This document shows, one piece after another, positions 13,004-51,500 of a DNA stretch of 64,000 nucleotides. Source of the DNA: a virus (lineage: Duplodnaviria; Caudoviricetes). The stretch lies in the IMG/VR virus record IMGVR_UViG_3300037249_000373, positions 2,876 through 66,875 of that record, one strand, 5' to 3'. The stretch's first letter is position 1. The number at the start of each line of letters is the position of its first letter. The translations under genes were made by a program, and so were the position numbers. Under the pieces are notes generated by a model. The model ran no database searches. It was not told the origin of the DNA and worked only from the letters and a program-made list of their open reading frames with translations.

Positions 13004-13291
13004 ATGGCAAGTAGAGAAAGTGTAATTAATTCATTAGAACAAGTTGACTATGACATTGCTCGTATTAAAGCAAATCTGTTAACTATTACAGAAAACTTTG
13101 AGAAAGCTAAACTGGAGAAAAACAATAAAGATATTCTTAAATGGAAACGCTATAAAATGCAACAGGAAAGATACATGCATTATGCTAAGGAATTTAAGAA
13201 GAATACCATGGAAAAGCATAAAGAGTTACTGGAAACATGGAAACAGCAAGTGCTTGATCTGGTAGATGGTATGGAGAAAGATAATGAATGA
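13004..13291 (+). CDS. coiled-coil hypothetical protein
   Basis: GGAG RBS; heptad-like pattern. Confidence 0.65.
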   Translation: MASRESVINSLEQVDYDIARIKANLLTITENFEKAKLEKNNKDILKWKRYKMQQERYMHYAKEFKKNTMEKHKELLETWKQQVLDLVDGMEKDNE

Positions 13292-13571
13292 GATGGATTT
13301 ACTGAAAGGTATCCCTTGGCATATCCTTACTTTACCTGGTTTTGATAGCGAATACCCTATGTATGATAACCAGAAAAAGAATATGACTATTGTATATAGT
13401 AGAGGAAAGAAACTGTTTAGCTTACGTATAACGCTTACAAGCGATAAGAAAGGCTTAGTAACAGATAACTATACCTATGCTGGTAAAGTAGCTGTAAATA
13501 AGCTTAAAAAGCTCGTAAAAGCATATATAGAATCCTATGGCTATAAAGTTAAATTAGGGATACATGTGTGA
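13266..13571 (+). CDS. hypothetical protein, probable outlier of the YxxILG paralog family
   Basis: N-terminal 'MDLLKGIPWHIL'; C-terminal 'VKAYIESYGYKV'. Confidence 0.6.
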   Translation: MVWRKIMNEMDLLKGIPWHILTLPGFDSEYPMYDNQKKNMTIVYSRGKKLFSLRITLTSDKKGLVTDNYTYAGKVAVNKLKKLVKAYIESYGYKVKLGIHV

Positions 13572-13824: not shown

Positions 13825-14157
13825 ATGGAAAGTAAAATATTTGATGCACTTCTTAATCTGTCACAAAAAGATTTAGAAGATATATTTAAAGTAAAAGGAA
13901 GAATAATAGTAGATATTAAAATATTTAAAAACTATGATGACTATGATTCTGAGATGTATGAAGAAGTAGCTATATTAGTTACATACAAAAAAGATGCAGT
14001 AGTAATGCCACAGCTATATAGGATAACTGCTAATAAGTATGGATATGCTGGAATAGACTATAAAAATATATTTAATCGGTATGGAATTAAAAAACCAAAA
14101 AATGTTAATGTACTTAACAGACTTAAGACTTTTCTAAATTTATTAGGATATAATTAA
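13825..14157 (+). CDS. hypothetical protein, probable outlier of the YxxILG paralog family
   Basis: 110 aa; C-terminal 'RLKTFLNLLGYN'; GAGG RBS. Confidence 0.65.
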   Translation: MESKIFDALLNLSQKDLEDIFKVKGRIIVDIKIFKNYDDYDSEMYEEVAILVTYKKDAVVMPQLYRITANKYGYAGIDYKNIFNRYGIKKPKNVNVLNRLKTFLNLLGYN

Positions 14158-25515: not shown

Positions 25516-27477
25516 TTATTCCTCAATTTTACTAAATTTTATCAATTTATTGATTGTATATCTTTTAGGAAAACCAAGATTAAGAGCTCTAGCTACCCAT
25601 TCAATAGAACTCATAGAATTAGGTCTCATCATTATTCTATAGCCCATATCACCTACCACACTTCCTTCTATGTTTTTGGTTTTATTATAGAAAGAATCTA
25701 TCTGTTTAACAGGAACAGTAAGGTGCTTTAAATCAAACAGGTCTACATATTTAGTAGGCTCAGAATACAGGAATACACCATTGTCTTCTCTGCAAGCATA
25801 ATAAGTTATTTCCTCAGGTATAAGCATATTCTTATGAGCTACCAATAAACCAACATGAGTATAATCACTATTTATATCTGGTATAGGATGATAATCATGT
25901 ACTGGATAACCTCTAGGTAATAGATTCTTTAAATGAGGAGGTTCATGTAATGGAGGTATAAATACACCTTTATAAAAATCTGGTTTAGGAGAAGGAAGTT
26001 TACTTACTATATTAGTTTTAATAATTCTTATTAAATTATCATATATAGACGTATCACCTTTATAACAAACCAAATAGACATGACCTTTAATTATTATACC
26101 TGTAGGTTCCTCTGGTTCTATAGGTTCAGGTTCAGGTTCAGGTTCAGGTAATATTGGTTCATAATAATCAAAGTAATTATCTTTCATTGCATATGGTTTA
26201 GTTTCTGAATATACATGAACTGCAACATAATCTACTATTTTAGATGCATCTTGAGCAACATGACTTAATGCACTTGATATATCAGAAAAACCTGGTATTG
26301 TACTGCTTCTAAAAGAAGCTGGTAAAGTTCTTCCACATATTTCTACTAAATCAAAATACTCACCATCAAAGTAAAAACCTTTTAAATTACCATATGTTTC
26401 ATAAGGTATTACTAGTTCATGCCAAGTAGATAATGTATCAGCAGGTAGTTGTTTTAATACTCTTATTGAAGGGTTAATCATCCATGACCATATTTTTAAT
26501 TCTTTGGTTTCAGGGTCTATCCATAAATCTCCAGAAGAGGATAGACTACCATCGACATTTCCTGTTGTATGAAAATGTATTAATCTATAAATACGATTTT
26601 CACCATTAGTCTCAGTAAATTTAAATCTAAATATATAAGCACAATTTAATGTATCGTTAGGATCTTCATGGTAATGAATAGAAGTTGGAATCCAGTTTAA
26701 AGTAAATCCAGACTTTAATATTGCATTAGTAAACTCAGGTACTTTAGTACCTGCATTATATCCATCTACTAATTGGTATTCTCCATCTATAACACCATCA
26801 GTAGATGTAAATATATAATAGCCATTAACTAGTATTTCATTAGGAAAATTATTGTATTTGCCTGCTTGAGAATTATTTCCAATATATGCACATTTATCTA
26901 CCGTGGCACTTCTAAGTAATACATCATTTATACCTAATGTATAATTTCCTATTTTTCTTCCCGGAGCATATACTTGAGTACCATAATCAGTTATAAAACC
27001 AACATAAACCAATAAACTTCCATCTGTATCTGTTTTTAAGTATGGTCTAATATTATCAGAAGCATATGTACCACCTGTATGAGCACCATTTGCATTTATA
27101 GCATATACAAAAGAATGTAATTCCTCATTCTCATAATAAGAGAATATGAAATAAGTACATGCTTTTTCTTTAAATTGAACACTATAATCAAAAATAAAAG
27201 GTACTTTATAAGTATTACCTGTTATTGGCTCACCTCTAGTAGGATTGTCTTTCCAAAATTCATTATAAATATCTGCTATATGCCAACCTTCTTCTAATGC
27301 AGTAGTTACATTAGACCTGTATTTACATGTACCTCTTGAATCACCAGAGTATTCATATGGATAAAAATAAGAAACATAGTACTGCTTGTTAGGAGGCAAT
27401 ACTATAGTTAAATTAAATGGTGTAGTAGTACTCATTATTTTATTCTCCGTAAATATAAAACCAAAGAAATAGTACAT
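25516..27477 (-). CDS. large two-domain hypothetical protein with Pro-Glu linker (likely start at MSTTTP)
   Basis: 653-aa ORF; Tyr/Gly-rich beta-type N-terminal part; 'PEPEPEPEPIEPEEP' linker. Confidence 0.75.
   Translation of the reverse strand: MYYFFGFIFTENKIMSTTTPFNLTIVLPPNKQYYVSYFYPYEYSGDSRGTCKYRSNVTTALEEGWHIADIYNEFWKDNPTRGEPITGNTYKVPFIFDYSVQFKEKACTYFIFSYYENEELHSFVYAINANGAHTGGTYASDNIRPYLKTDTDGSLLVYVGFITDYGTQVYAPGRKIGNYTLGINDVLLRSATVDKCAYIGNNSQAGKYNNFPNEILVNGYYIFTSTDGVIDGEYQLVDGYNAGTKVPEFTNAILKSGFTLNWIPTSIHYHEDPNDTLNCAYIFRFKFTETNGENRIYRLIHFHTTGNVDGSLSSSGDLWIDPETKELKIWSWMINPSIRVLKQLPADTLSTWHELVIPYETYGNLKGFYFDGEYFDLVEICGRTLPASFRSSTIPGFSDISSALSHVAQDASKIVDYVAVHVYSETKPYAMKDNYFDYYEPILPEPEPEPEPIEPEEPTGIIIKGHVYLVCYKGDTSIYDNLIRIIKTNIVSKLPSPKPDFYKGVFIPPLHEPPHLKNLLPRGYPVHDYHPIPDINSDYTHVGLLVAHKNMLIPEEITYYACREDNGVFLYSEPTKYVDLFDLKHLTVPVKQIDSFYNKTKNIEGSVVGDMGYRIMMRPNSMSSIEWVARALNLGFPKRYTINKLIKFSKIEE
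26123..26146. repeat. (GGTTCA)4 microsatellite encoding the PE linker
   Basis: Direct reading. Confidence 0.85.
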
Positions 27478-27650
27478 AAATCTACTACACTTTGGTCTTT
27501 TGGATTGGTAACAAACTTATAACCTTTATCTACTAAATTTTGCATTAAGGTATCAAGTGATACATCCTGATTATATAAATGAACAGTATTCCCTTTTATA
27601 TGTTCCAGCAACTCATTAAGTTTCTTTTCCATTGTATATTCTCCATGCAT
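27435..27650 (-). CDS. hypothetical protein
   Basis: GGAG RBS before MEKKL; coupled overlaps. Confidence 0.55.
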   Translation of the reverse strand: MHGEYTMEKKLNELLEHIKGNTVHLYNQDVSLDTLMQNLVDKGYKFVTNPKDQSVVDLCTISLVLYLRRIK

Positions 27651-27822
27651 GTAAACATGCTACTGATAGATGGTATAAGTTTTCTTCCCAATCCTTCATA
27701 CCTTTAGCATTAATCAATTCTTCATATTCCATTTTAATGATAGCATTGGCACCATTTGTGTCATCAGGATATTTATCCCAAGTATGTGGTTTATGTAAAT
27801 CAACTTCATGGCATTTATACAT
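27616..27822 (-). CDS. hypothetical protein (68 aa)
   Basis: ORF track; coupled to the next gene. Confidence 0.6.
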   Translation of the reverse strand: MYKCHEVDLHKPHTWDKYPDDTNGANAIIKMEYEELINAKGMKDWEENLYHLSVACLHAWRIYNGKET

Positions 27823-27879: not shown

Positions 27880-27892
27880 GCCCCTACGGGGC
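27880..27892 (+). promoter_or_regulatory. TAC-loop hairpin promoter candidate heading the + strand accessory island
   Basis: GCCCC-TAC-GGGGC in the divergent intergenic gap. Confidence 0.6.
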
Positions 27893-27932
27893 TGTACGGT
27901 TTTATTTTTTTATTTATTTTTAAGGATTAGTT

Positions 27933-28538
27933 ATGAAAGAAATTAATTTAGGTATGTTCAACAAAGTTATTGATAATTCATTCGATTCTAATGCAGAAGT
28001 TGCATATGGTCCAGAATTCTTAATGGATCTAGAAGTGTATCAGGATAACTTCTTAAAGGGTCTAAAGAAAGAGTTAATGGATAGAATTGAATCCTATGTA
28101 GATCATGATTATGACCTCATGAGAGGTGAAAAAGGTGCAATAGAAGGTGCTTTGGATGACTATCATCAAATTAAGGAAATCCATAAAGAATATATGGATG
28201 AGTTAATATTTGCTTTAACTAATGGATATAAAGTTTTAGCATTTGGTTTAACTCAGTATGCAGACAGGTGGGTTATCCCACAGGGATTAATGACCATCGA
28301 AAGTGAGTATATCACTGGAGATAATAGAAGAGCTCTTAAAGCTGTTTATCTGATTCCTGTTGTAGATTACAAGAGAATTGACAGAGGCATAGAGTTTACA
28401 TTATGCAGAAAAGGCAAGACTCCTAATAAATGGGAAAAAGAAACCAGAGTAGAAGAAAACCCTGTTAGGGTAAGAGTTACTCTAACGGTTAAAGGTAGTG
28501 TAGATACTATGAGTAAATATAAGGTTGAGGTATTATGA
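27933..28538 (+). CDS. hypothetical protein (201 aa)
   Basis: AAGGA RBS; first gene of the island. Confidence 0.7.
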   Translation: MKEINLGMFNKVIDNSFDSNAEVAYGPEFLMDLEVYQDNFLKGLKKELMDRIESYVDHDYDLMRGEKGAIEGALDDYHQIKEIHKEYMDELIFALTNGYKVLAFGLTQYADRWVIPQGLMTIESEYITGDNRRALKAVYLIPVVDYKRIDRGIEFTLCRKGKTPNKWEKETRVEENPVRVRVTLTVKGSVDTMSKYKVEVL

Positions 28539-28873
28539 CTCTAGAAGAGTTTAAAAACATCTGTGAACCATTAGAGGAAGTAGCAGTTAAGTCTATAAAT
28601 ATACCTGAATTCAGATGTGTAGACTTTGACTGCTATGCCAAGAATGACAGCTATATATTTGTAGTTAAATACATATCCAGGATTTCAAATAAGTTTAGAA
28701 CAATATTCTTATTTAATTCTAATGGTACTATGATAGGTATATTCGGTGATGCATATATGCATCATAAAACACTAAAGGCTATAGTAGATTATTTAACTCT
28801 ATTAGGATTACCTATAGATGAAAGTTTACAGCCATATATAAGAGATGCCACAAAGGAATCACCATGGTATTAA
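28535..28873 (+). CDS. YxxILG paralog family member
   Basis: 'IVDYLTLLGL'. Confidence 0.7.
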   Translation: MTLEEFKNICEPLEEVAVKSINIPEFRCVDFDCYAKNDSYIFVVKYISRISNKFRTIFLFNSNGTMIGIFGDAYMHHKTLKAIVDYLTLLGLPIDESLQPYIRDATKESPWY

Positions 28874-29229
28874 CTATTAACCAAGCAACAGATATACTTA
28901 ATAGTATACCTATTGAGTTATGCTACCCAAGAGTAAAACATAATGTTTTAGTAAGTGATACTCTAATACCATTAAGTATTTACCTATATAGAAGGGTAAT
29001 AATAGGAAGTACAGTTCCTAACCAAAGAGATATAAAAGTAGATATTATATTCTACCCTGATGTATACAAAGGTTGTTTCTCAGTAAATGTGTATTCAGAT
29101 CATAGATTATCTAATGTATACAATGGAACATATCTTAAAAGAGTACAGAAGAATTTAGGTATGTATTTTAATCTTCTTGGTTTAAAAGATCACCTTATGT
29201 CAGATATTAAGGATGTATTAAATGAATAA
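28864..29229 (+). CDS. YxxILG paralog family member
   Basis: 'DILNSIPIEL' and 'LGMYFNLLGL'. Confidence 0.7.
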   Translation: MVLTINQATDILNSIPIELCYPRVKHNVLVSDTLIPLSIYLYRRVIIGSTVPNQRDIKVDIIFYPDVYKGCFSVNVYSDHRLSNVYNGTYLKRVQKNLGMYFNLLGLKDHLMSDIKDVLNE

Positions 29230-29548
29230 AGAAGAATTCTTTAAATTAATTAAAGATATGCCATCTGATTTATATAAAGTAGATGACTATACAGTAACTA
29301 GAAATTTTAGTAAACATGCTAACTGTATAACATTTACTTATAAGTCACAAGAATATAAAGAAGTACCATTTTTTAAAGTAAGTGGTTATCCTAAAATATA
29401 CATTAATTATTATGTTAAACCAGAAACACCAACTATATGTATAGATAGCAACTTCTTTGTTAAACAAGAAATAGTAGATATAAAGCATAGAATAGGAAAC
29501 TACCTAGAACTATTAGGATTTACTATTAAAATGAGATATACAGGATGA
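29222..29548 (+). CDS. YxxILG paralog family member
   Basis: 'KLIKDMPSDLY' and 'IGNYLELLGF'. Confidence 0.7.
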   Translation: MNKEEFFKLIKDMPSDLYKVDDYTVTRNFSKHANCITFTYKSQEYKEVPFFKVSGYPKIYINYYVKPETPTICIDSNFFVKQEIVDIKHRIGNYLELLGFTIKMRYTG

Positions 29549-29604
29549 TAACCAGAAAAAAATGTAATATTGCTAAGTATATAACTAATTAGAGGAGATT
29601 TAGC

Positions 29605-30123
29605 ATGGAATTAGATAAAAGAATTAAATCACTAAAGTCTATTAGAAGTTTTAATACAGATAATAGTGATTGTTCAGGTAAGTTTGGCTATTTTACAAAC
29701 TATGTTGATAATTTTGATAACTTAGATGATATATGTAAAGGAACATGTGTATTTGAGGAAGGGGGAAGTTTCCCTTTTTATGCAATTAAAACAGATTCGC
29801 TAGAAAATAGAAAATTTCAATTTTTTATACCAGAGGAGGATTTGTTACCAAAACCAAAAGAAAAGAAATTTAGACCTTATACGCTCAAGGAATTTTTTGA
29901 CAAATTCACAGTCGGACAACCTATTAGATATAGAAGAAAAAGCGATTTATTAGAACGGTATTTAATTCTGGAAGGCTATGTGGATAGTAAAGGTGATGAA
30001 GAAGTTCGTTATCAATATGTCCACATAGGAAGTACACCATACACTCTTGACGAACTGTTTAATAAGTACGAGTGGCAAGAGCATTATACAGAGGATTTTA
30101 AACCATTTGGAGTAGAAGAATGA
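29605..30123 (+). CDS. hypothetical protein (172 aa), unrelated insert within the array
   Basis: GAGGAG RBS; lacks the family motif. Confidence 0.7.
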   Translation: MELDKRIKSLKSIRSFNTDNSDCSGKFGYFTNYVDNFDNLDDICKGTCVFEEGGSFPFYAIKTDSLENRKFQFFIPEEDLLPKPKEKKFRPYTLKEFFDKFTVGQPIRYRRKSDLLERYLILEGYVDSKGDEEVRYQYVHIGSTPYTLDELFNKYEWQEHYTEDFKPFGVEE

Positions 30124-30308
30124 CTGCTAAAAAATTATTAGAAAATCAAGAATTTAATGCTGATACAATTTCTGTATCATTGTCAAAGAAAGAATTGGAA
30201 CTACTTATAGATAAATTGTCTGATATGCCAATTATAAATAAGCAAGCTCTTTACATATTTCAAAAACTAACAGAAAAACTTGAAATTCTGGAAAGTAAAA
30301 ATGACTGA
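30120..30308 (+). CDS. hypothetical protein (62 aa)
   Basis: ATGA coupling; GGAG RBS. Confidence 0.65.
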   Translation: MTAKKLLENQEFNADTISVSLSKKELELLIDKLSDMPIINKQALYIFQKLTEKLEILESKND

Positions 30309-30678
30309 AGAACACTTAACTGATGAGATACATATGGATTCACTATTAAAGGCTCAACTAGAAACAGCCGAACAAATAGATAATTTTATGTCAGGTATTC
30401 CAATAGATTTATTTGATAAACCTGATTTCCTCATAGACATACATAGAGAAATTATGTGGAATAATCGTGGTGATCCATTTGGTAAATATGATTTAGTTGT
30501 ACCTGATAAGAATAATTTACGATTTAGTGTATTATCTGCAATTATTACTAAGACTACATATCAAGTACATACTAATACAAGATTTTATGATGATAATGTA
30601 AAGACTACAATAAATAATATAAAGAATAGGTTAAAAGCCTATTTTAGTATTATGGGTTTAGTAGAAAAAAAGATATGA
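30280..30678 (+). CDS. YxxILG paralog family member (likely start 30301)
   Basis: 'NFMSGIPIDLF' and 'LKAYFSIMGL'. Confidence 0.7.
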   Translation: MKFWKVKMTEEHLTDEIHMDSLLKAQLETAEQIDNFMSGIPIDLFDKPDFLIDIHREIMWNNRGDPFGKYDLVVPDKNNLRFSVLSAIITKTTYQVHTNTRFYDDNVKTTINNIKNRLKAYFSIMGLVEKKI

Positions 30679-30836
30679 CTATAGATGAAGAGAATAGAAG
30701 AAATATACTATCTAAAAATGATGGAATCCTACCTGTTAAGGAAGTATCTAAAACAATAACAAATACATTAGATAATATAGCTAGTTATTTTAATATTCTT
30801 GGTTTTACTGTGGGGAAAAAATATGACTACAAGTGA
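30675..30836 (+). pseudogene. 53-aa chimeric, internally deleted YxxILG paralog; not in ORF track
   Basis: MTIDEENRRNILSK (matches the N-terminus of 31127) fused to DGILPVKEVSKTITNTLDNIASYFNILGFTV (matches the C-terminus of 30799). Confidence 0.7.
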
Positions 30837-31140
30837 AATAGTAAAGATAATAAAGAGTATGCCTCCTAACATATATAGTAATGAATATTATAAGAATAAT
30901 CATTATATTAATAATGTAAGCTATTGTTCATGGAATTATGAAACTAAACCTAAATATTGCTCTGATTATCAAATTAAATTATTTGAACGTGATGGTAGCA
31001 TAAGTATCTATCTCTTTAGAATGGATAAGGTTTTACCTGTTAAAAGAGGACCTAAAGTAATTATAAATTCATTACAGAATATAGCAGCTTATTTTAGAAT
31101 TATTGGTTTTAAGGTAGAAACATTCTATGACCGCAAATGA
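30799..31140 (+). CDS. YxxILG paralog family member (likely start 30823)
   Basis: 'KIIKSMPPNIY' and 'IAAYFRIIGF'. Confidence 0.7.
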   Translation: MVLLWGKNMTTSEIVKIIKSMPPNIYSNEYYKNNHYINNVSYCSWNYETKPKYCSDYQIKLFERDGSISIYLFRMDKVLPVKRGPKVIINSLQNIAAYFRIIGFKVETFYDRK

Positions 31141-31468
31141 AGAAAATAGAAGAGATATATTATCTAAGCTACCTGATGAGTTGCTGCAAACCAAAGAATG
31201 TAAATTATTACATTCTTGGATTAATAGTACACCTCATACAGCTTGGAGAATATTAGCATATTCTAAACCATATGGTATTAAGTCAATAGATATAACTATA
31301 ACTGATAATGTTCGTGGTTCTTATTTTGTAGTTATTAAAGTATTTATCTCAGGTACTAAATATGACTACTTTAATGCACCTAAAAATAAATCATACCCTC
31401 AAGTAGATATAGCATATCAAATAGCTAATTATTTAAAGATATTAGGATTATACGTAAATGACCATTAA
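31127..31468 (+). CDS. YxxILG paralog family member
   Basis: 'DILSKLPDEL' and 'IANYLKILGL'. Confidence 0.7.
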   Translation: MTANEENRRDILSKLPDELLQTKECKLLHSWINSTPHTAWRILAYSKPYGIKSIDITITDNVRGSYFVVIKVFISGTKYDYFNAPKNKSYPQVDIAYQIANYLKILGLYVNDH

Positions 31469-31757
31469 TGAATTACTTAATGTATTATATACTGTACCCT
31501 TTAATAAACTAACAGATGGTATTATTTATTGTAGAATAAATAACTTTGTAGACGTTGTATCTACTCTAGGTAGAGTAGATATAGATTTTATGAGAGGTAA
31601 TACATGTATAGGTTTTATAAGGGTATATGGAGATAATACTATAAACCCTGCATTACCTGAAATATTACAAACAAATCCAAGACGTAAAGAATATCTAGAA
31701 GCTATAGAAAAAGTTATAACTTACTTAGAAATATTAGGATTTAGGAATGAACACTAA
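31458..31757 (+). CDS. YxxILG paralog family member
   Basis: 'NVLYTVPFNKL' and 'VITYLEILGF'. Confidence 0.7.
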   Translation: MTINELLNVLYTVPFNKLTDGIIYCRINNFVDVVSTLGRVDIDFMRGNTCIGFIRVYGDNTINPALPEILQTNPRRKEYLEAIEKVITYLEILGFRNEH

Positions 31758-31785
31758 TGAATTACGTAGTATATTAGAATCTTAA
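31747..31785 (+). pseudogene. truncated N-terminal remnant of a further paralog (MNTNELRSILES*)
   Basis: Coupled start like the other members; resembles 'MTINELLNVL'. Confidence 0.35.
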
Positions 31786-31906
31786 GTGAACTAGAAAAAA
31801 GGCTGTTAGCTAATTCACTATAACTAAGCATATAACAGCCTTATTACTTGGTTAACCACAATAATATTACTTCTTTTTCTTTCCACCACAACCCATAATA
31901 GTCTCC

Positions 31907-32228: not shown

Positions 32229-32690
32229 CTACTCTCTATTTGCTACTTTTAACTGTTCAATCAAACTTTCTAATTCGTTAATCCTTGCTCTAGCATCATG
32301 TCTTTGTGATTTAACTTCTTGGTAGTCACTTTCAGTTATTTCACCCTCAGCAAACTTAATAGCCTTGTAATCAGTATCAGATAGATATTTTTTCAGTTCT
32401 ACGATTTCAGACTGATACTTCTCAATTAAAATCATACTCTCGGTTTTCTTAGGTGCATAGCCTTTCAGATAAATCCAACCATTAAGCTCACTCACTTCTG
32501 TATCAGTAATAGCAACGGTATTATCTTGCCAACCGAGTTGATAAGCCAATGCGGTATCTTCAGTAGAAGAACCCAAATGCTTATCATCATAGATTTTCTC
32601 GTAGTAGTAAGTATTAGGTACTTGTTCAATTACTGTTTCTTGGGTTTCTTGTTCTTCGATATAGTTTTCAAGTTCTGTAATCTGTTCCAT
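32229..32690 (-). CDS. tail-fibre-associated chaperone-like protein
   Basis: Directly after the fibre gene; 'LKKYLSDTDYKAIKFAEG...RARINELE' pattern common after phage fibres. Confidence 0.6.
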   Translation of the reverse strand: MEQITELENYIEEQETQETVIEQVPNTYYYEKIYDDKHLGSSTEDTALAYQLGWQDNTVAITDTEVSELNGWIYLKGYAPKKTESMILIEKYQSEIVELKKYLSDTDYKAIKFAEGEITESDYQEVKSQRHDARARINELESLIEQLKVANRE

Positions 32691-42562: not shown

Positions 42563-45500
42563 TTATAGAGCTTCCCAGATAGTATTAGCTATCTTAACTG
42601 ATGTTAATCCATTTAAGCTATCTACAAATAACTCACCTGGGAAATTGAATTTATTAATCATTGTAGTTGTACCGAAGATACCTTCGTATATATTAGGTAA
42701 ACCAAAGATTAAATCATTCAATGCCATAAAGCTTACAGCTCTATCAGGGTTACCGAATATGCTATTTAACATAGCAGATTTAGAACCAAAAGCATACTTA
42801 GCAAAAGGATATACACCTATGCTGTCCAGATACTGAATACTCTTAGGTAATGGGTTAGAGTAATCAATAAAGGTTTGTAATGCTACTCTACTTGATTCTT
42901 CTTCAGAGAAACCAGTATTTCTCATGTGTTTATATAAAGCATACTTAGCTACAGTATCACCTGCATTAGCAAACATGAATAGAGCCTGATATAAATTACC
43001 TTTAGGAGACAGAGTAAATTCATGAGCTAAATCTCTTATCATTCCTTTAGGAGTAATATTATCAATCAAGTCCTTAAAGAACTTATCTGATTCAGCACTG
43101 TTCTCAGCCAAAGAATTAGATACAATACCTCTCTTATACAGTGGATACATAGGAGAATTCTCTATATTTTGTTTTAGAGCTCTTTCTTTAATAGCATCTG
43201 CATCAGTATAGGTATTATTAAATTGTTTAACCTTTAATGCTTTTAACTGCTTTTCCCATTCATTGATGGTACGCATAGCATTAAATGCTTCAGCCTGGTA
43301 TTGACCTATCTCTTTAAGAGACAATCCTTTAATGCCTAAAGTAACACAGTTAGATACAAGGTTATTCCATGAAGTGGTTAAACCCTTAATAACAATATTA
43401 TCTTTAGCTGTAGAGGCTAACCATTTAAAGAACTCTTCCATATTACCTGTTATACCATTGTGGAATACATACTTAACATAATTCATAAACTCAGTAGATA
43501 AGTCTGTCTTGAATTTATCCTGTTCTTCTATGGCTTTAACTGCTTCCTTGGTTGCATCTATATCATTAGCAGATAACTGTTTATAACCAAAAACAGTAGT
43601 AAGAGCTTTCTTCATAACAGGTATTCCATTATCACCATATTTTTCAGTAGCTATTGCTTTAGTATCATATGGTAATGAATTGTATAATTCTCTATATTCT
43701 TCATTCTCTGAGTTATCAGATAACCATACAAACTGATTTGAATTACCCTGTTTAGCAAAGTGTTCATAAATATTAATCATAGCTTCACCAGCTGTTCTAT
43801 TAAACTCACTGGATTGACTACGTTCAATACATGAACCATAAATATCACCTAATACAGATGTTATTTTTTGGTTTCTTCCAATTACTTCATCTGTAGTAAC
43901 AGGATTTAATTCAAAATTAGCACCTGTAAGTCTATCTATATAATTAAAGTTAAGTACCAGATTACCATGAGGAGCTTTCTGTAATAACTGAGGGTTAGGT
44001 TTATTAAGAGCATTAACTCTCTGGTTTACATATTTCTTTAATTCCTCATATTCTTTGGTTCTCTTCCAGTCTATTTCTTTATCTACTTTACCTTCACCAT
44101 TGTAAGATAAACCAGATTTAGCTCTGCCTTTAAACAAGTCAGTCATAAGAGTAACACCAGCTACATAAGGAGTAGGTGATTTCCATTTAGCTTTAACAAT
44201 TACATATTTTTCTTTAGCTATACGCTTATAGAATGGGTCTAATTCAGCATCAGATACTTTTTCATAGCCATTCCATTGATATGCTTTAAGTTCACTTTCA
44301 GGGATAATATCATATCTACCTGTAGTTTTACCTCCATGTAACTGTCCCTTTGGTATATGATTTTTCTGTTGGTTATTACCATATACCTCAGTATATTCAG
44401 CATCTTTAACACCGTTATGCACCTTAGATAAATTCTCTATTACCCGTTCATCCAACTTGTCATAAACTGGATTTTTAATGAGATCTAGAGCATATAGAGT
44501 AGTTAACTGATCTACAACATTAACTATATCTCCGTTAAACTTACCCTTAGTTTGATAGCTTGAACCAGAAAGATTAACTATCTCATAGGCATTTCTATAG
44601 GCTAAACCAGTAGGATTAAAACCAGTAACAAGATATTGAGCTAAACCTTTAGCCATATTCTTATATGCATTAGCATATGTTTGACCATTAAGCTTATTTT
44701 CTAATTTCTTTATTTCTTTGGTTCTAGCATCTTTATTGGTTAACAATTCCTTAACTTCTTTAGCTGATTTAGTACTGTTAAATAAACAGCTAATATCAGT
44801 TCTAATGAACTGTCTGGTTAACTCACGTTCTACCTCTTTAGGTACATCCTTAAGTATGTCTTTAACAGTATTATTAACAGCATCAGCACCTCTTTCACGA
44901 GACTGGTCTATTAACATCTTACCTTGGTTTCTTATCTGTAAGTATCTGTACATATCAGGTGAAGCACCCTCAATAGAACCAGCTAAATCATTTGCAAAGT
45001 TTTCAAGGTATTTAAACTTAGATGAGGTAAATTCTCTGATACCATCAGTAAGTACAGTGGCTATATCTTGAGTACCTTTTCTTTCATACTCATTAGCCAG
45101 TGTAACCAAAGATGATGAACTACCTATAATATCTTCTATTGGATTATGCAAATTACCTAATAATCTTTCATAAGGAGTTTCATTTGCACCTCTTGCATAG
45201 TCATACTCTTTAGGTACAGTACTGTCCTTACCTATAGAGGCTTCTTGCCAGAACTTGGCAGATGCTTTATAGGAAGATCTGAAGATACCATCTACAGCAC
45301 TAACCAAAGAAGTAAATTCTGCTTTGGATTTAGGTTGATATTCTCCTGATATGAAGGATGTTAACTTAGTAATAACAGCAATAAACAGATTTTTAATCTT
45401 TTCTATTAAACCCATTTTAGCTTTATGCTTACCTATTCTGTTTTCCATATTGCGTATAGCTTGTCTGAACTTAGGGCAAGATACTGCATAAGCACCGAAC

Positions 45501-48500
45501 TCTTCCAGATGATTAGGTGTTTGAGGGTTGGTAATAGCATCCATAATAAGTCTATTAGCTGGAGTATCACCATCTTCAAAATCATCAAGAGTTAAGTTAT
45601 CCATAGCTGTATTGAATATCTTGGTTAGTTCCTGTTTAGCTCTAGGGTCTGCATGTCTCCATACAGTATGGGAGTACTCATGTCTCATAGCTTCTGTTTG
45701 AGATTCACCATTATTGGCTTTACCAAGAATAATCTCCTCATTACGAGCAACACCATATTCATCTCTTTCAAGTGATACCTGAGATACATCAATGGTATTA
45801 GAAGCTTCATCCATAAACAAAGTAATAGGTGTGGTAGAGTTAACCATTAAATCATCCAACCAGGATAATTCAGTATCATTGGTATCTACACCTCTTTCTG
45901 AGTCCATACGCTTACATTCATTTAATGCTCCTTTAAGAGATACACTGCCATTAAGCATATCTCTAGTCATATCAGAAAGGTTTCTATTTGCTGGCTTACC
46001 TCTCATGTTTCTAACATCCATATTTACTTGATCAGTAAATTCTTTATTATGAGTAGGTATACGTCTAAATGCATGGAATACACTGGCAATACCATTTACA
46101 GCACTTGTAAACATATTTCTCTTATTAACTTTAATCTCATCAGCTACAGTTTGCATTGCTTTCTTACTGATGTTATTTAAGCTTAAGAAGGTATAGCTAA
46201 AATCAGTACTGTCAGGTACAGTTAAATAAGCATCTGAATAATCAAAGGTATTATCTTTATGGATAAAAGCTAAGTTATTAATGCCTACTGCACTAAGCTT
46301 ATTCTGAATAACACCTAAGCATCTTGCATTAACATTCTTTAAACCTTCATCATAATTATCTACCTCAAGCAGATTCTTATTTATTAAGGACCTATCAATA
46401 AATACTCTCTTATCTGAATTAGAGTCAGAGTTATTAGTTACAAACTTACGTACATTGTTTACATTTAGTTTAGCTTCATCACTTAACCAATCAAATAAAG
46501 GAGTACCTGTTACTAATTCCCATTGACCATAAGATTTAGCAACACTCTGAGCTAGTTCATTCTTAGCTATAGAGGTATCTCTTGTTACCTGGAATACATA
46601 ATAATGAATGTTATTAAGGCTATCAGTTACTTTTATTACTCTTGGTTTAAGGTATTCTCTCCATGTAATACCACCATTTAAGTATTTCTTATAGTCTTCT
46701 TGCATAGCTAATTTAGCCTGGAATACAGCACTGTTAAATTCAGGTAAATCCTTTAATAAACCTACTGTACCTTCATTAACGAGAGAACCATCAGAACACA
46801 TATTAATACCAATAGCATTAGTGTTAATACCATTCTTAGGAGTAAATATAGCACCTATACCGCCATGGTCTGCATCAAACCAAATAGAATCAGAACCAAG
46901 TTTAATATCTTTATAGCCTGTCTTTGTATAAGAGGCATCATTCTCAGGATTATCCTGTAGTATATCATCTAAGTCTATATCCTGTAGTGATCTGTCTCTT
47001 ATGCCATTAGTTTCTAAAGCAATAGTAGGTAATATATTATCCCTATCAGAAGTTTCATTAGACCATGAATCTCTTAGTTCACCTATTTCATTAGTAAAAT
47101 CTATGTCTACATTTGCTTTATCAGAATAGCTAGCTCTGTCTATCTGTTTATAATTACCAGAATCATCAATAGAACCAGATTGAGCTTTTTCACCATAGGC
47201 AGACTTATGCTCTATTAAATAGGACTCTGTTACATCCTGGTTTGATATATTCTGTAATAGCTGTACATTATCCTTAACAGTTCCTCTAGTAAAATGAATA
47301 GTAGGGTTATTACAGGATTGCTTTAAGCGTAATAATAACTCAGATTCCAAATCAGTTTTAGGAGAATTTCTAGTAAGGTCAGATACAGAAGGTACTACTA
47401 CAATAGATGTACCCTGGAACATTTCATAACCCTCAGTACCGGCTCTATCTATCATTCTCTGCAATGCTTGCATACGAAGAATATCCTGGCTTGAACGAAG
47501 AGTAAATACTATCTGTTTGTCACCAGCTTTTAACTTATCTTTATAGTAATTATATACAGCATTAAATATATTGCTATCAAACCATTCAGTTGTAGCAGTA
47601 TTCTTATCATAGTCAGCTCTAGAACCATAAATATTGTTCTTGTTAACTGCTTGTTCAATAACAGTATCTACACCTTCCCAGTCTAATTCACTGGATAAGT
47701 CTATAAAAGTAGTTTTTGTTTTATCAAATTCAGATAGATTAACTTTGAATTGGTCTGTACCAAATCTATGTAACAGCTTTTCAAAAGCTTCTTTCTGTCT
47801 TGTAGATAATCTGTTACCAAGGGATAAGCCTACGGCTTCTCTAAGAATATTCATTATATCCCATGAATTGAAAGAGCCTTTACCAAGCAGTTTATCCTTA
47901 TTAGCCAGGATAGCCTGATATAAGTTTCTAATAACATACATATTGTCAAGATGTAGTACTTTACCAATATCAATCTTAGTAAGAATCTCAAAAGCAGATG
48001 CTATTTTATTATTAGTACCACGACTAGCTAGTCTGTTATTAGTATCTTCAATATTAAATGTCTTTTTATTAGCTATATTGAATAAACCAGATAGATGTAC
48101 TTTATCAATAGTATTAGAACCAGTCTTAAGATGGTCATTAATATCCTTTAAGTATGCAGGTATTAAAGCTCTATTAAGTGCCATTGCATTAAAGATTTTA
48201 TTAAGAGTACCTTCCAGAGTTAAATCAATATATTCTGAATCAAATTTCTTTTTGCTATCATAATAAACGTTTTCTAATCTGGAATTTAGCTCCTCTTCAG
48301 TTATACCTAACTGAGTAAGATGATTATATAACCAGTTCTTTAAGCTTAAATCACCATCTCTTAAAATGCTTGCTATGCTGTCTGTTATAATTTTGTCAGC
48401 ATCAGCCTTTTTGATGAGTTCTTTATAAGCTTCTATTTCCTTTTCTAAATCCTTTTCAGTAGGTTGATAAGCAGAAGACTCATCTAAACTAAACTGGTTT

Positions 48501-51500
48501 ACATAAAATGTTTTATCTCCTCTCTTGGCTTTCTCATAATTAAGTTCAGCCATAGCTAAACCAGAAAATAGAACATCCATTTGAGTACTGTCTTCACACT
48601 GAGCTATAGTACGTTCATATTGAGCTATCAACTTACCAGCGGTATCACCTAGCAGTTCTTTATGGTTTTGAATCCATCTTAGAGAAGCACGTAGTTTTTC
48701 ATCTCTATTTACACACATCTCAGCTATACGCATTCTGTCTGTATAGAATATCTTATTTAATTCAGGCATAGCAGATAACTGATTCAGACCAGCTATCATA
48801 GCATCATGAATAGGTAATCCTTTACCATATCCGTTTCTTAACATATAGTCCTGGAAGTTGGTCATATTGTAACTATCAATAGAATGTACAGTTACAGGTG
48901 ATTGACCAGCCCCTAAACCCTCAAGATAAGGTGAAGTATATTTGGTATTAAGTATTAAAGTACTGCCTCCTTTCATAAGAGTCATAGCACTTAATCTTGT
49001 ATTAACATCCTTAATAAGAGCTTCTTTAAAGGTACTTAACTCAGAACCAGATAAATCAGTACTTTCTTCTATACCCACAATACCAGAGAATATCTTAGTT
49101 AGCTCATTGGCTATATCCTGAGCTTTCTCCATTAAGTCTATATAGGTATATTCTTTAAGATTACCATTTTCATCAGTAAATGCTTTTTTAATAAGTTTCT
49201 CTAATACTACATTATAAGCAAAAGCCTGCTGATTAGTAGCAAGGTTATTATAACTAAGTACTCTCTGACCTTCTTTAAGAGCATCTGATACACTGTTATA
49301 GATAGGATCTAAAACACTTTCAGTTAATTTGGCTTTAGTAACAACATTCTCAGACAGATCTATATTTACTTCTCTTCTGGCTTTCTCATTACTAAAGATA
49401 TTTATACCGATACTGTTTCTATTTTTATCAAGAATATTACCCTCTCTGTCCAGGAAACAATTATTGTCTTCATAAGTAACAGATAAATAACCTTCATTAT
49501 AACCTACTAAGTCCTTAATAAGTTTTCTCATATTATCATTAACTTCACCAGCAAGTACTTTAGATACCTGTTCACTGATAAGCTTTAAGAAATCTAAAGA
49601 TACAGATTCTCTACCGGCACTGTAAGTAATATACATTACCGGGTATTTCATGAAGTTACGAGTCATAATACCTCTAAGGGTATCTACAATATTTGTTGTA
49701 TCCAAGCCATAAATAGACTTAAGTATTTCTGTATTTGGATCATCCTGGAAGTTATTTGTTACAATGCTTTCTAGCGATTTAATAGCTACATTGTATTGAG
49801 AGAATGAACCAGAGATTAAGTAAGTATCAAGGAAACCAGAACTAAGAATATCTACATAGTTTGTAAATACACTTGATAAACCTACACCTGTAGATAACAT
49901 CATATTCAATGGGTCTTGAGTGCCTTCAAATACACCTATCATAGCTCTAATAGCCGGACCATTAGTAGTACCATCTACTTCAATTCTAAGAGTGTAATTA
50001 GATATAGTATTAGATGGATTAAACAACTGAGCTATATCTGTAATAGCATTGGTCCTTCCTTTTGCATCTTTTATTTGTATATCCTTTAATTTAAGTAAAG
50101 TGTATACAGCTTCATGCTTATACTTTATTTGGAATAACTCAGCCTTTTCAGCATTCTTTTCATAATCTGGTTTAATTACATTAAAGCTTACTTCACTGGC
50201 TTTGTCTTCACCTTGTTTTGCATAATCACTAATATCTTCATTAAACTTGTCTATAGCTTTCTGCCAAGTATCAGGCTTATCAGGATCAATGCTTTGTAAT
50301 AGAGTATTAAAGGCATTATGTAATACACCATCTTTTTGACTCAATTTGTCCATTAAAGCACTAATGGCTTCAGGTCTCATTTTATCCCAACCTAGATCAA
50401 AACCATGAAGAATAGGTAATAAGAAATCAGTAGCATTAACTGTATATTTATTAGGATTAGTTGCATCAGGAACAGACCTGTCCTTACCTATAGTAAATTC
50501 CATTTGTCTCATATCGTTCATTTCAAATAAGTTTCTGTACATCTTATTTTCACGATAGTTATCAACAAGATTGTTTACAAACAGTCTGTTATTTACTGTA
50601 TTTTCTTCATCAAAATACATAGGAACAAAAGTATCAGTAGAATTCCATAGTTTATTACCTATAAATTCAGCTGTTTTTAATAAGCTTCTTAAAGCTTGAT
50701 AGTTACGAGTATTGATATTAGTAGCGAATTTACCTTGTTCTTTATTAGGATCTTCATAATCAATCAATAAACCAATATTAGGATGTGCTTTTACTAGCTC
50801 TGCCAATTTCTCAGGCGTATCAAAGTTAATTTCACTAATAGTTACCTTACCAGTAGCATCTATCAAATCTTTGAACATCTGTTTAGTTCTAGGTATATTC
50901 TGTAAAGATGGTTCAATAATATTAGCTAATATCTGAGCTAATCTTAAATGAGATACCTTAGTACCATCTTTCTTAAAGATTATATTATCAGAATAGTAAT
51001 ATGTTTGTTTTATATCCTTCTTTTTACCCTCTAGTTTAATAATACCATTATCTGCATCATGACTAAGTTTAACATCAGTTAAAGTACCCACTTGACCGAA
51101 GCTATCAAGTTCAACACCGTTAGTATATTCAGTTCCTAATTCTTTTTGGTATTCCTGGAATTCTGTTTTAATTCTAGGATTTTTAAGTCTATTGGTATAA
51201 CCAAGTAAGTTATCTAATATACTTACAGTATTACCTGATTCATTGGTAAAGGTATCCATTGTATTTATAGTAGACTGCATATCAGTACCCTTGTTAAGTA
51301 ACTTAACTACAGGCATGGTATTAGCGAATGTAGTACCTTTATCTGCTTTAGTATATTTACCATCAGCTCTGGATAGTCTACCTACTTCTATATAGCCAAG
51401 TTCATGTAATAAAGCAACACAGTGATTACCCATATCTTTTACAAGATTACTGTACATAAGAGCATTATCACTGTCATGCTTATATCCTAAAGCATTGGCA

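Follow-up and report, generated by a model that had tools for sequence, protein, structure and literature searches.

The island at positions 27,880 to 31,785 carries a tandem array of small, highly diverged paralogs, which sequence comparison with related phages identifies as an old, maintained multigene family with gain and loss of units rather than a transient amplification. Homologous recombination between the repeated gene junctions adds units to the array and removes them. The protein itself is small and not described before.

Genomic setting and content of the island

The window, the 64,000-nucleotide stretch of viral DNA analysed here, comes from a gut-derived phage that is a distant N4-like (Schitoviridae) relative with a genome of ~75 kb; the MAG assignment for one contig is 'Bacilli bacterium'. 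The island's neighbours are in every case fibre-type genes (a 653-aa gene, a 780-aa fibre with a BppL_N motif, and Peptidase_S74 fibres in relatives), and these flanking fibre/virion genes run on the strand opposite to the island. Its position between tail-fibre genes is a possible pointer to a virion-related role. The features of the island are as follows.

27880..27892, + strand: GC-rich hairpin with a 5-bp stem and a TAC loop (GCCCC-TAC-GGGGC), 41 nt upstream of the first ATG
27933..28538, + strand: leader gene, 201 aa, non-family (family HMM E 3.2), restricted to the window lineage, including L002
28535..28873, + strand: subfamily L member, 112 aa (independent HMM E 1.2e-4; dN/dS 0.11)
28864..29229, + strand: subfamily M member, 121 aa, motif present (independent HMM E 5.9e-4; dN/dS 0.08)
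29222..29548, + strand: subfamily K member, 108 aa (independent HMM E 1.3e-13; dN/dS 0.67)
29605..30123, + strand: 172-aa gene, non-family (family HMM E 13)
30120..30308, + strand: 62-aa gene, non-family (family HMM E 2.4)
30301..30678, + strand: subfamily J member (independent HMM E 1.5e-9)
30675..30836, + strand: chimera, 53 aa, subfamily A 5' end joined to subfamily D1 3' end (DNA-level matches)
30823..31140, + strand: subfamily D member, D2 type (independent HMM E 1.7e-23), 80% identical to the D2 of L007
31127..31468, + strand: subfamily A member, A being the most widespread subfamily (independent HMM E 6.4e-19)
31458..31757, + strand: subfamily C member, C1 type (independent HMM E 1.9e-13)
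31747..31785, + strand: remnant of another C copy (C2), 12 codons long (alignment to the C1/C2 junction of relatives)
31799..31841, + strand: long imperfect hairpin at the convergent island end, terminator-like and conserved in relatives (fold z-score -1.3; no match in an Rfam search)

For two of the family ORFs, homolog N-termini and Shine-Dalgarno sites suggest that the true start lies downstream of the TTG that opens the frame, at ATG 30301 for ORF 30280 and at ATG 30823 for ORF 30799. The three non-family genes of the block are those at 27933 (201 aa), 29605 (172 aa) and 30120 (62 aa). The leader gene has no match in Pfam, PHROG or PDB and shows a dN/dS of 0.13 against L002, while the best Pfam match of the 172-aa gene is a sub-threshold YccV-like hit (E 0.024) and a PDB search with it returned nothing at E < 0.01. 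The first-pass annotation had described a single translationally coupled block behind one hairpin. The hairpin is there; the coupling along the block is not continuous, since a 56-nt gap (29548-29605) interrupts it.

The array is one protein family

Profile, motif and DNA-level evidence assigns the seven ORFs (28535, 28864, 29222, 30280, 30799, 31127 and 31458), the chimera at 30675 and the remnant at 31747 to one family. All listed ORFs lie where they were first mapped and carry the proline motifs and C-terminal motifs first read from their translations. A profile that draws on the arrays of other phages and leaves out every window sequence (the independent HMM) puts the seven ORFs and the chimera in the first eight places among 412 ORFs (E 1.7e-23 to 5.9e-4). 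The C-terminal motif, in its broader form Y-x-x-[IL]-[LIM]-G-[FLY], occurs as Y[LF]x[IL][LIM]G[FL] eight times in the 412 six-frame ORFs of the genome, every time inside the island, against 0.12 expected from composition, so that the proposed kinship goes beyond chance similarity. The family is nonetheless strongly diverged: pairwise BLAST between window paralogs is weak, a leave-one-out HMM recovers five of the seven, and identity among them is 10-27% in MAFFT alignments and 22-39% in pairwise global alignments.

Named relatives are absent, as first noted: no member has a match in Pfam, NCBIfam, PHROGs or PDB sequences, and none shows homology to a protein of known function. Of 1.84 billion cluster representatives searched, just 14 were recovered.

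Two further copies had been proposed at 13.3-14.2 kb, of which one is upheld and the other is unproven.

13284..13571, + strand: single-copy paralog, distant and strongly conserved (ORF opens at 13266), directly upstream of a Dda/PIF1-like helicase
13825..14157, + strand: possible member, C-terminal motif match only

Profile-profile comparison of ORF 13266 (hhalign, A4 vs A3) gives a probability of 89% and E 2.3e-6 over 93 columns end to end, and its orthologs in L010-L013 are 64-96% identical and occupy the same position, which supports its assignment as a conserved distant paralog of the array family. ORF 13825 aligns over 19 columns (hhalign P 0.0012; HMM E 0.006-0.1) and is absent from relatives L010-L013.

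Unit gain and loss in related phages

A syntenic island is found in five related metagenomic contigs, where it consists of 12-14 family members and no other genes; the window array has 7 members, against up to 14 in relatives. Sixteen subfamilies were counted, and their order is conserved apart from insertions and deletions. Orthologs remain intact and syntenic even between phages whose SSB proteins are 58% identical. The subfamily J member of the window has its ortholog (55% identity) at the far right end of the L004/L005 arrays.

Between contigs L007 and L008, at 98.5-98.8% identity, the difference is a single gene, and on either side of that gene stands a direct repeat of ~24 nt made of the motif tail, the Shine-Dalgarno (SD) site and the start codon. 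The same elements recur throughout the array, each gene junction carrying motif codons, a Shine-Dalgarno site and an ATGAC start. Within the window, both irregular units named in the first-pass annotation are confirmed as products of such events. In the chimera, bases 30641-30715 match the D2-end/A-start junction (77-82%) and bases 30713-30840 match the D1 3' end and D2 start of L007/L008 (82-83%), identifying it at the DNA level as an unequal-crossover junction of the duplication type. The remnant preserves the first 12 codons of the second C copy, which run straight into the terminator region that follows the array: window positions 31701-31782 align with the C1/C2 junction of relatives, whereas the 64 nt after them find their counterpart ~1.0-1.25 kb further on, past the end of the relatives' arrays (L004, L006). 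These alignments mark it as the scar of a deletion that took the right end of the array.

The label 'accordion-like' therefore holds in part. Gain and loss of units by recombination is borne out, by the one-gene indel and by the 12-14 members of relatives; recent near-identical copies, on the other hand, were not found in the array, where the youngest duplicates (the closest intragenomic pairs) are 42-47% identical with their reading frames still open.

Predicted fold and variability

AlphaFold2 (AF2) models of two members, the most dissimilar ones, whose topologies were compared model by model, share a predicted alpha-beta4-alpha sandwich. The subfamily L model (28535, m57e98e204313; pLDDT 80.9) is alpha-beta4-alpha with an extra C-terminal helix, and the subfamily K model (29222, m7822baac82ed; pLDDT 78.7, pTM 0.73) is alpha-alpha'-beta4-alpha-beta. 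The unit would be a soluble protein of ~90-130 aa, in which the N-terminal helix, with its conserved Pro at the end, and the C-terminal helix, with its invariant Tyr and Gly, pack on the same face of a four-stranded antiparallel beta-meander whose strands and loops form the variable part. No hydrophobic N-terminus or transmembrane stretch was seen on reading the translations by eye; Cys content is not unusual.

The best structural matches in the PDB are generic (Z 6.7-6.9, where the tool's noise guide gives a typical best Z of 7-8). KA1, the AMPK alpha-CTD and the IntS9/IntS11 CTD likewise pack a pair of helices against one side of an antiparallel sheet of four strands, and such KA1-type sandwiches match both models at Z 5.9-6.7 over 80-84 residues with 4-11% sequence identity. 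For the KA1 structure itself Z is 6.7 with one model and 5.9 with the other, at an rmsd of 3.4-3.9 for 80-82 residues, values that many unrelated folds tie. The order of elements differs, the N-terminal helix coming first in the family, and no member matches KA1 (Pfam PF02149) even at E<=10, so the models point to a resemblance of fold only.

The pattern first noted, conserved ends around a variable beta middle, is seen when paralogs are compared and again inside one ortholog group: in subfamily A (52 members, 45 distinct sequences) both helices are conserved and the variable residues lie chiefly at 41-70 and 81-90. Ortholog dN/dS is 0.08-1.0, mostly 0.2-0.75, with several members at 0.08-0.23 and a subfamily N pair at ~1; for comparison, conserved flanking genes lie lower, at 0.03-0.2, and fibre genes at 0.2-0.65. 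The array genes are therefore functional but fast-evolving, and whole-gene values below 1 in nearly all members do not demonstrate positive selection. Isoelectric points range from 4.1 to 9.6.

The upstream hairpin as a candidate promoter

The hairpin at 27880 belongs to a recurrent, + strand-specific class found upstream of early/middle-side genes. TAC-loop hairpins occur ten times on the + strand of the window and twice on the - strand, while other loop triplets occur 0-2 times; they lie 20-85 nt upstream of start codons. The hairpin is present as first described and is kept upstream of the island in five of seven loci, with an identical sequence in L002, L006, L007 and L008 despite diverged flanks. 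A role as terminator of an upstream gene is ruled out, because the genes on its two sides are divergent.

In LUZ7, early and middle promoters take the form of GC hairpins whose loop has 3 nt, and the start is a G lying 13-14 nt from the centre of the hairpin (PMC9163698); N4 early promoters are also hairpins (PMC4496689). The 27880 class shares with these the GC-rich 5-bp stem, the 3-nt loop, strand specificity and a position upstream of genes, and the 27880 hairpin has a G at +12/+13 from the loop centre; it differs in that its loop reads GTA on the template strand, with a pyrimidine at the centre, whereas N4 requires a purine at -11. It is thus a candidate phage-RNAP promoter of N4/LUZ7 type for the island, whose conservation suggests early or middle expression. 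Since several hairpins of the class lie 6-7 nt after stop codons, it could also be an RNA processing or attenuation element. The class as a whole offers candidate promoter elements for a very divergent N4-like lineage.

Possible functions of the array

The best guess is that the array encodes a diversifying set of binding proteins that act in the cytoplasm, in host takeover or in counter-defence, a reading that draws on context (a hairpin of pre-late type, fast evolution, varied pI) and on analogy. In a single operon whose stop and start codons overlap, the units would lie behind the GC-stem/TAC-loop hairpin, the type that N4-like phage RNA polymerases use for early or middle promoters, and an operon of this kind would have its proteins made before those of the flanking opposite-strand virion genes. 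With its variable sheet and loops, each paralog may then recognise a host target of its own, the set serving as a standing repertoire against variable host factors, and the single-copy relative beside the helicase may retain an ancestral housekeeping partner. This whole explanation, an early or middle host-directed binder repertoire recombining at gene junctions and forming a multigene family specific to one clade of N4-like phages associated with the gut, is favoured, if a little short of probable.

The constant presence of fibre-type genes on both sides of the island, themselves strongly diverged between relatives (42-47% aa identity), would fit accessory proteins of the virion or tail fibres that work with the variable fibres as adaptors, chaperones or host-range modifiers. 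Such a role is unlikely: the island lies on the other strand with its own hairpin of the early/middle-region class, there are 12-14 paralogs against 2-3 fibres, chaperone and fibre families give no match to any member, and L004 keeps a full array although it lacks the 653-aa gene.

Cofactors of the phage's replication or transcription, such as helicase partners or binders of nucleic acid (hairpins) laid out alpha-beta-alpha like a dsRBD, are suggested by the distant paralog at 13284-13571, which in every relative immediately precedes the Dda/PIF1-like helicase, by dsRBD clusters among the ESM-feature neighbours of subfamily A (0.86, a lead only), and by the small early cofactors that N4-like phages employ for RNAPII (PMC4496689). 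A housekeeping cofactor would, however, have no need of 14 fast-diverging copies with pI from 4 to 9.6. Further, 0 of 54 members match Pfam dsrm (PF00035) even at E<=10, no dsRBD is among the top 50 structural matches, and the dsRBD feature overlap (130-138 of 256) is what the tool's guide gives for chance, which leaves this reading improbable.

Immunity islands such as SUKH/Imm arrays typically consist of diverged alpha+beta paralogs, small and in tandem, and one member has a sub-threshold Imm59 match (E 0.064), so the proteins might neutralise polymorphic toxins or rival phages in immunity or superinfection exclusion. With no toxin gene nearby, no recurrence of Imm/SUKH matches over 54 members and no membrane or secretion signal, this is quite improbable. 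That the units are functionless duplicates retained by a recombination-prone repeat structure, as the chimera, the remnant and the subfamily N dN/dS of ~1 might imply, is very improbable given intact, syntenic orthologs at 58% SSB identity, several members at dN/dS 0.08-0.23 and youngest duplicates still open at 42-47% identity.

If, as in the preferred reading, the members bind host factors, they would offer a compact natural scaffold with a hypervariable face, a tractable model of viral multigene family evolution with recombination sites at nucleotide resolution, and a route into the defence and counter-defence of uncultured livestock-gut bacteria.

Comparison with known systems

SUKH/Imm immunity proteins form tandem arrays of diverged paralogs in bacterial polymorphic toxin systems and, like the present family, are small alpha+beta proteins in which a motif with Pro comes after the N-terminal helix. 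The family differs in the absence of a toxin partner and in its setting, probably a phage early/middle operon. A SMI1_KNR4/SUKH signal is found in 0 of 54 members, the Imm59 hit being the single related match, and no SUKH structure was recognised among the 50 best structural matches of the two models, a list that need not capture every similar fold.

In T-even phages, T6 shows SegB-driven segmental amplification of anti-defence loci (PMC13096335), and there as here tandem recombination alters the dosage or repertoire of small accessory genes. What T6 amplifies are identical segments; selection is acute and a homing endonuclease assists (PMC13096335). The array, in contrast, is a fixed set of diverged paralogs with no endonuclease gene inside the island.

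Large DNA viruses carry multigene families and gene accordions, exemplified by ASFV MGF110/360/505 and poxvirus K3L amplification. These and the array share tandem paralogs, a variable region, copy number differing between close isolates, recombination between repeated units and a presumed host-interaction role. The array belongs to a bacteriophage of ~75 kb and to an unrelated protein family, and its copies are ancient (10-45% identical), whereas the ASFV/poxvirus type consists of recent near-identical amplifications. It thus shows one hallmark of a poxvirus-type accordion, copy-number change between near-identical genomes via repeats (L007/L008), and lacks recent near-identical copies (closest pairs 42-47%). 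Small phages seldom hold more than two or three paralogs of anything; 14 diverged copies of one undescribed fold in conserved place and order imply strong, lasting selection for diversity. A possible though doubtful extension is that the array is the phage equivalent of these families, with 14 early paralogs neutralising polymorphic variants of host factors and recombining at their junctions. It would then represent a new small alpha/beta binder scaffold in a 14-paralog array taking up ~6% of the genome, its conserved junctions acting as built-in recombination sites at which units are reshuffled, added or lost in phage populations. Such a counter-defence repertoire, modular and combinatorial, would be one so far undescribed for phages.

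Genomic setting of the paralog island

The source IMG/VR virus record (66.9 kb, estimated completeness 81%), most of which lies in the window, is that of a distant N4-like phage (Schitoviridae). Its primase is ∼41% identical to N4 gp43-like primases in some 470 phage records, the + strand of the window encodes a Dda-like helicase, a family A polymerase, a Sak4-like protein and an SSB, and the window GC content is ∼31%. The features around the island are as follows:

25516-27822, − strand: short operon left of the island, including a 653-aa gene
27880, + strand: hairpin GCCCC-TAC-GGGGC, between divergent genes, 41 nt 5′ of the first ATG
27933-31757, + strand: paralog block
31799-31841: long imperfect hairpin directly after the array
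Right of the island, − strand: late genes, fibre-type genes first, one of them (780 aa) with a BppL_N motif
42563-57316, − strand: 4917-aa ORF among the virion genes, presumed virion RNA polymerase; no Pfam match at E≤0.001 was found

Contigs bearing homologs, among them one of 74 kb, one of 77.5 kb and another binned into an NCBI ‘Bacilli bacterium’ MAG, carry the island at the same site, between a short − strand operon and a − strand Peptidase_S74 fibre gene. Sample labels suggest pig gut and rumen as the source of these relatives. Blastn of the island against GenBank phages gave no match, and IMG/VR scans with the 201-aa gene of the block and the primase as queries found no close relatives. 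In the 77.5-kb contig (L004), a close relative, a tyrosine integrase (Phage_integrase, L004:1419-2567) adjoins the island and occupies the site of the 653-aa gene in other relatives; an integrase is unusual in an N4-like phage.

The small ORFs form a single new family

The ORFs, N-terminal Pro motifs and C-terminal motifs quoted in the first-pass annotation were all found at the island. From the window alone, their grouping into one family is arguable, since BLAST between paralog pairs is weak and a leave-one-out HMM retrieves only five of the seven paralogs. Three results settle the matter. The strict motif Y[LF]x[IL][LIM]G[FL] occurs eight times in the six-frame ORFs of the genome, each time inside the island (0.12 expected); a profile run against 1.84 billion cluster representatives recovered 14 proteins that are independent family members; and an independent HMM, built solely on arrays from three further contigs, places the seven ORFs and a 53-aa chimera in the first eight ranks among 412 ORFs (E 1.7e-23 to 5.9e-4). 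The paralogs thus constitute one new family, found in arrays of 7 to 14 units.

By the family HMM, the 201-, 172- and 62-aa genes within the block are not members. The 153-aa protein adjoining the island (32229-32690, − strand) scored E 0.0009 with one version of the family HMM and E 0.27-0.43 with others, the former probably a compositional effect.

The earlier impression that no named family applies agrees with the database searches: scans of all members against Pfam, PHROGs and NCBIfam, and a PDB sequence profile search, returned no recurrent or significant match. Longer fused forms were sought and not found, which is weak evidence.

A common predicted fold with a variable middle

AlphaFold2 models of two dissimilar members, K (pLDDT 78.7, pTM 0.73) and L (pLDDT 80.9, pTM 0.73), share one layout, in which a helix at the N-terminus leads into an antiparallel meander of four strands and then into a C-terminal helix bearing the invariant Tyr and Gly; beyond this helix, K has a fifth strand and L an additional helix. 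Across 54 aligned sequences, Tyr and Gly alone are invariant, with conservation of the Pro at 90% or more. In subfamily A (45 distinct sequences, median identity 74%), conservation covers residues 1-30 and the C-terminal helix, and variability peaks at residues 41-70 and 81-90, in keeping with the variable middle between conserved ends described initially. Conserved helices around a variable middle are thus the predicted common fold of the family.

Foldseek searches of both models against PDB and BFVD gave no match at E≤0.001. In exhaustive structural alignment, the best Z scores were 6.7-6.9, with KA1, XisI-like, RnlA N-terminal domain, Aha1 N-domain and BPI-like folds tied at the top; these likenesses, all with Z below 7, were read as those of a generic alpha/beta sandwich. 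In the ESM Atlas, no useful neighbour was found for subfamily K, and subfamily A gave a sub-threshold dsRBD lead.

The conserved Gly codon as a mere by-product of an overlapping ribosome-binding site was rejected as the main cause, because the motif is retained without a following gene in subfamily K and in the distant paralog starting at 13284, and lies ∼20 codons (∼60 nt) before the stop in subfamily L. At several compact junctions, the post-motif tail does contain the Shine-Dalgarno site of the next gene.

Gain and loss of units

Clustering of members gave 16 subfamilies (A-P). In the relatives, over the fetched stretches of 6-16 kb, there are 12-14 members per genome and every island gene is a member. 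Gene order is kept among arrays, and differences consist of single units.

Gene maps of the arrays (letters, subfamilies; brackets, non-members in aa, and the chimera)
Window: [201] L M K [172] [62] J [chimera] D A C
L004: E F G B H I D A B C C B J N
L006: E F G O B H P D A C C B N
L007: E F G O H I D D A B C C B
L008: E F G H I D D A B C C B

L007 and L008 are 98.5-98.8% identical over the island, the sole difference being the gene O. A direct repeat of ∼24 nt borders O at either end and takes in the last post-motif codons, the Shine-Dalgarno site and the overlapping start, ATGACTA. Because O also occurs in L006, L008 has lost it by a clean deletion between the junction repeats. The window itself bears two rearranged units, both recognized in the first-pass annotation. 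The 53-aa ORF at 30675 is a DNA-level fusion in which A supplies the 5′ end and D1 the 3′ end; since D1 lies upstream of A, this junction is of the type made by segment-duplicating unequal crossing-over. At 31747, the 12-codon remnant consists of the opening codons of a second C copy joined to the sequence that follows the array. Compared with L004 and L006, it marks a deletion of about 1.0-1.25 kb. Motif-coding DNA matches that of other units over 21-42 nt at 78-100%, providing microhomology.

Units are therefore gained and lost at junction repeats, and to that extent the proposed accordion-like behaviour stands. The recent amplification that the term implies does not: near-identical copies are absent, and the youngest pairs (C1/C2 and D1/D2) are 42-47% identical. 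The family in the array is old and maintained, and its units are still being gained and lost.

A conserved single-copy paralog outside the island

Two further copies had been proposed at 13.3-14.2 kb, one of which holds up. ORF 13266, whose true start is probably 13284, has nine homologs (64-96% identity), and hhalign of the 13266-type profile against the family profile gave 89% (E 2.3e-6) over 93 columns, end to end, by comparison with P 0.075 and 0.28 for two control ORFs. On this profile evidence, it is a conserved single-copy distant paralog of the island family; in relatives, the gene lies directly 5′ of the helicase. The match of ORF 13825 is limited to the C-terminal motif and the ORF is not present in relatives carrying the 13266-type gene, so its membership is unproven.

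For one homolog (L014:598-897), the database gene call matches only if TGA is read as Trp, which carries it beyond the normal stop; the probable cause is that code 4 was used for gene calling on that metagenome contig. The window gives no sign of TGA recoding, its 4917-aa ORF being open under table 11. Three genes 5′ of the 13266-type paralog, two relatives encode a NADAR-domain protein (L010:2012-2395 and L012:2004-2387). As NADAR proteins reverse DNA ADP-ribosylation, the early/middle region may hold counter-defence genes.

Hairpins and expression

The hairpin noted at 27880 is present upstream of the first ATG. Its reading as a plain intrinsic terminator was rejected because the flanking genes are divergent. 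Perfect 5-bp GC-rich stems with a TAC loop are strongly + strand-specific (10 on the + strand versus 2 on the − strand), and counts for each of the other loop triplets are 0-2. If one mismatch is permitted, the + strand total is 18, 11 of them in the + strand-coded part of the window, most directly 5′ of + strand genes:

880, 3172, 6094, 6537, 7723, 10835, 14164, 18384, 22322, 24909 and 27880, + strand: TAC-loop hairpins, most 20-85 nt 5′ of + strand genes

They fall into two stem classes, GGGC-TAC-GCCC and CCC-TAC-GGG. The identical hairpin precedes the island in L002, L006, L007 and L008 despite differing flanks, and L004 and L005 have a different hairpin there. Early promoters of N4 are small GC hairpins (PMC4496689), and in the N4-like phage LUZ7, early and middle promoters alike are GC hairpins in which the loop measures 3 nt and transcription starts at a G 13-14 nt from the centre (PMC9163698); hairpin 27880 has a G at +12/+13. 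The TAC-loop hairpins are accordingly candidate phage-RNAP promoters of the N4/LUZ7 type, and by analogy a phage RNA polymerase would transcribe the island before the late genes.

The long imperfect hairpin directly after the array (window 31799-31841; L004:8448-8511; L006:9575-9638; ∼80% conserved) lies at the convergent junction with the late genes and is probably a bidirectional terminator. Rfam gave no match over 24.5-33 kb of the window, this hairpin included.

Possible roles and known systems

We tentatively favour the reading that the paralogs are diversified binders of host targets, for host takeover or counter-defence. Ortholog dN/dS values of family members span 0.08-1.0 (many 0.4-0.75), those of conserved neighbouring genes 0.03-0.2 and those of fibre genes 0.2-0.65; the family is under purifying but relaxed selection. 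A role as fibre-associated accessory proteins is unlikely, and we hold it similarly doubtful that the paralogs serve the phage's own machinery for replication or transcription as cofactors. The proteins have pI values of 4.1-9.6, and no hydrophobic N-terminus or membrane segment was noticed in translations inspected by eye. Immunity or exclusion proteins are a less probable identity still. That the paralogs are functionless duplicates is very improbable.

Among known phenomena, the nearest to this array are the gene accordions and multigene families that large DNA viruses carry, and the amplification of segments with anti-defence loci in T-even phages (PMC13096335). Both, however, involve other protein families and lack the ancient-paralog character of this array.
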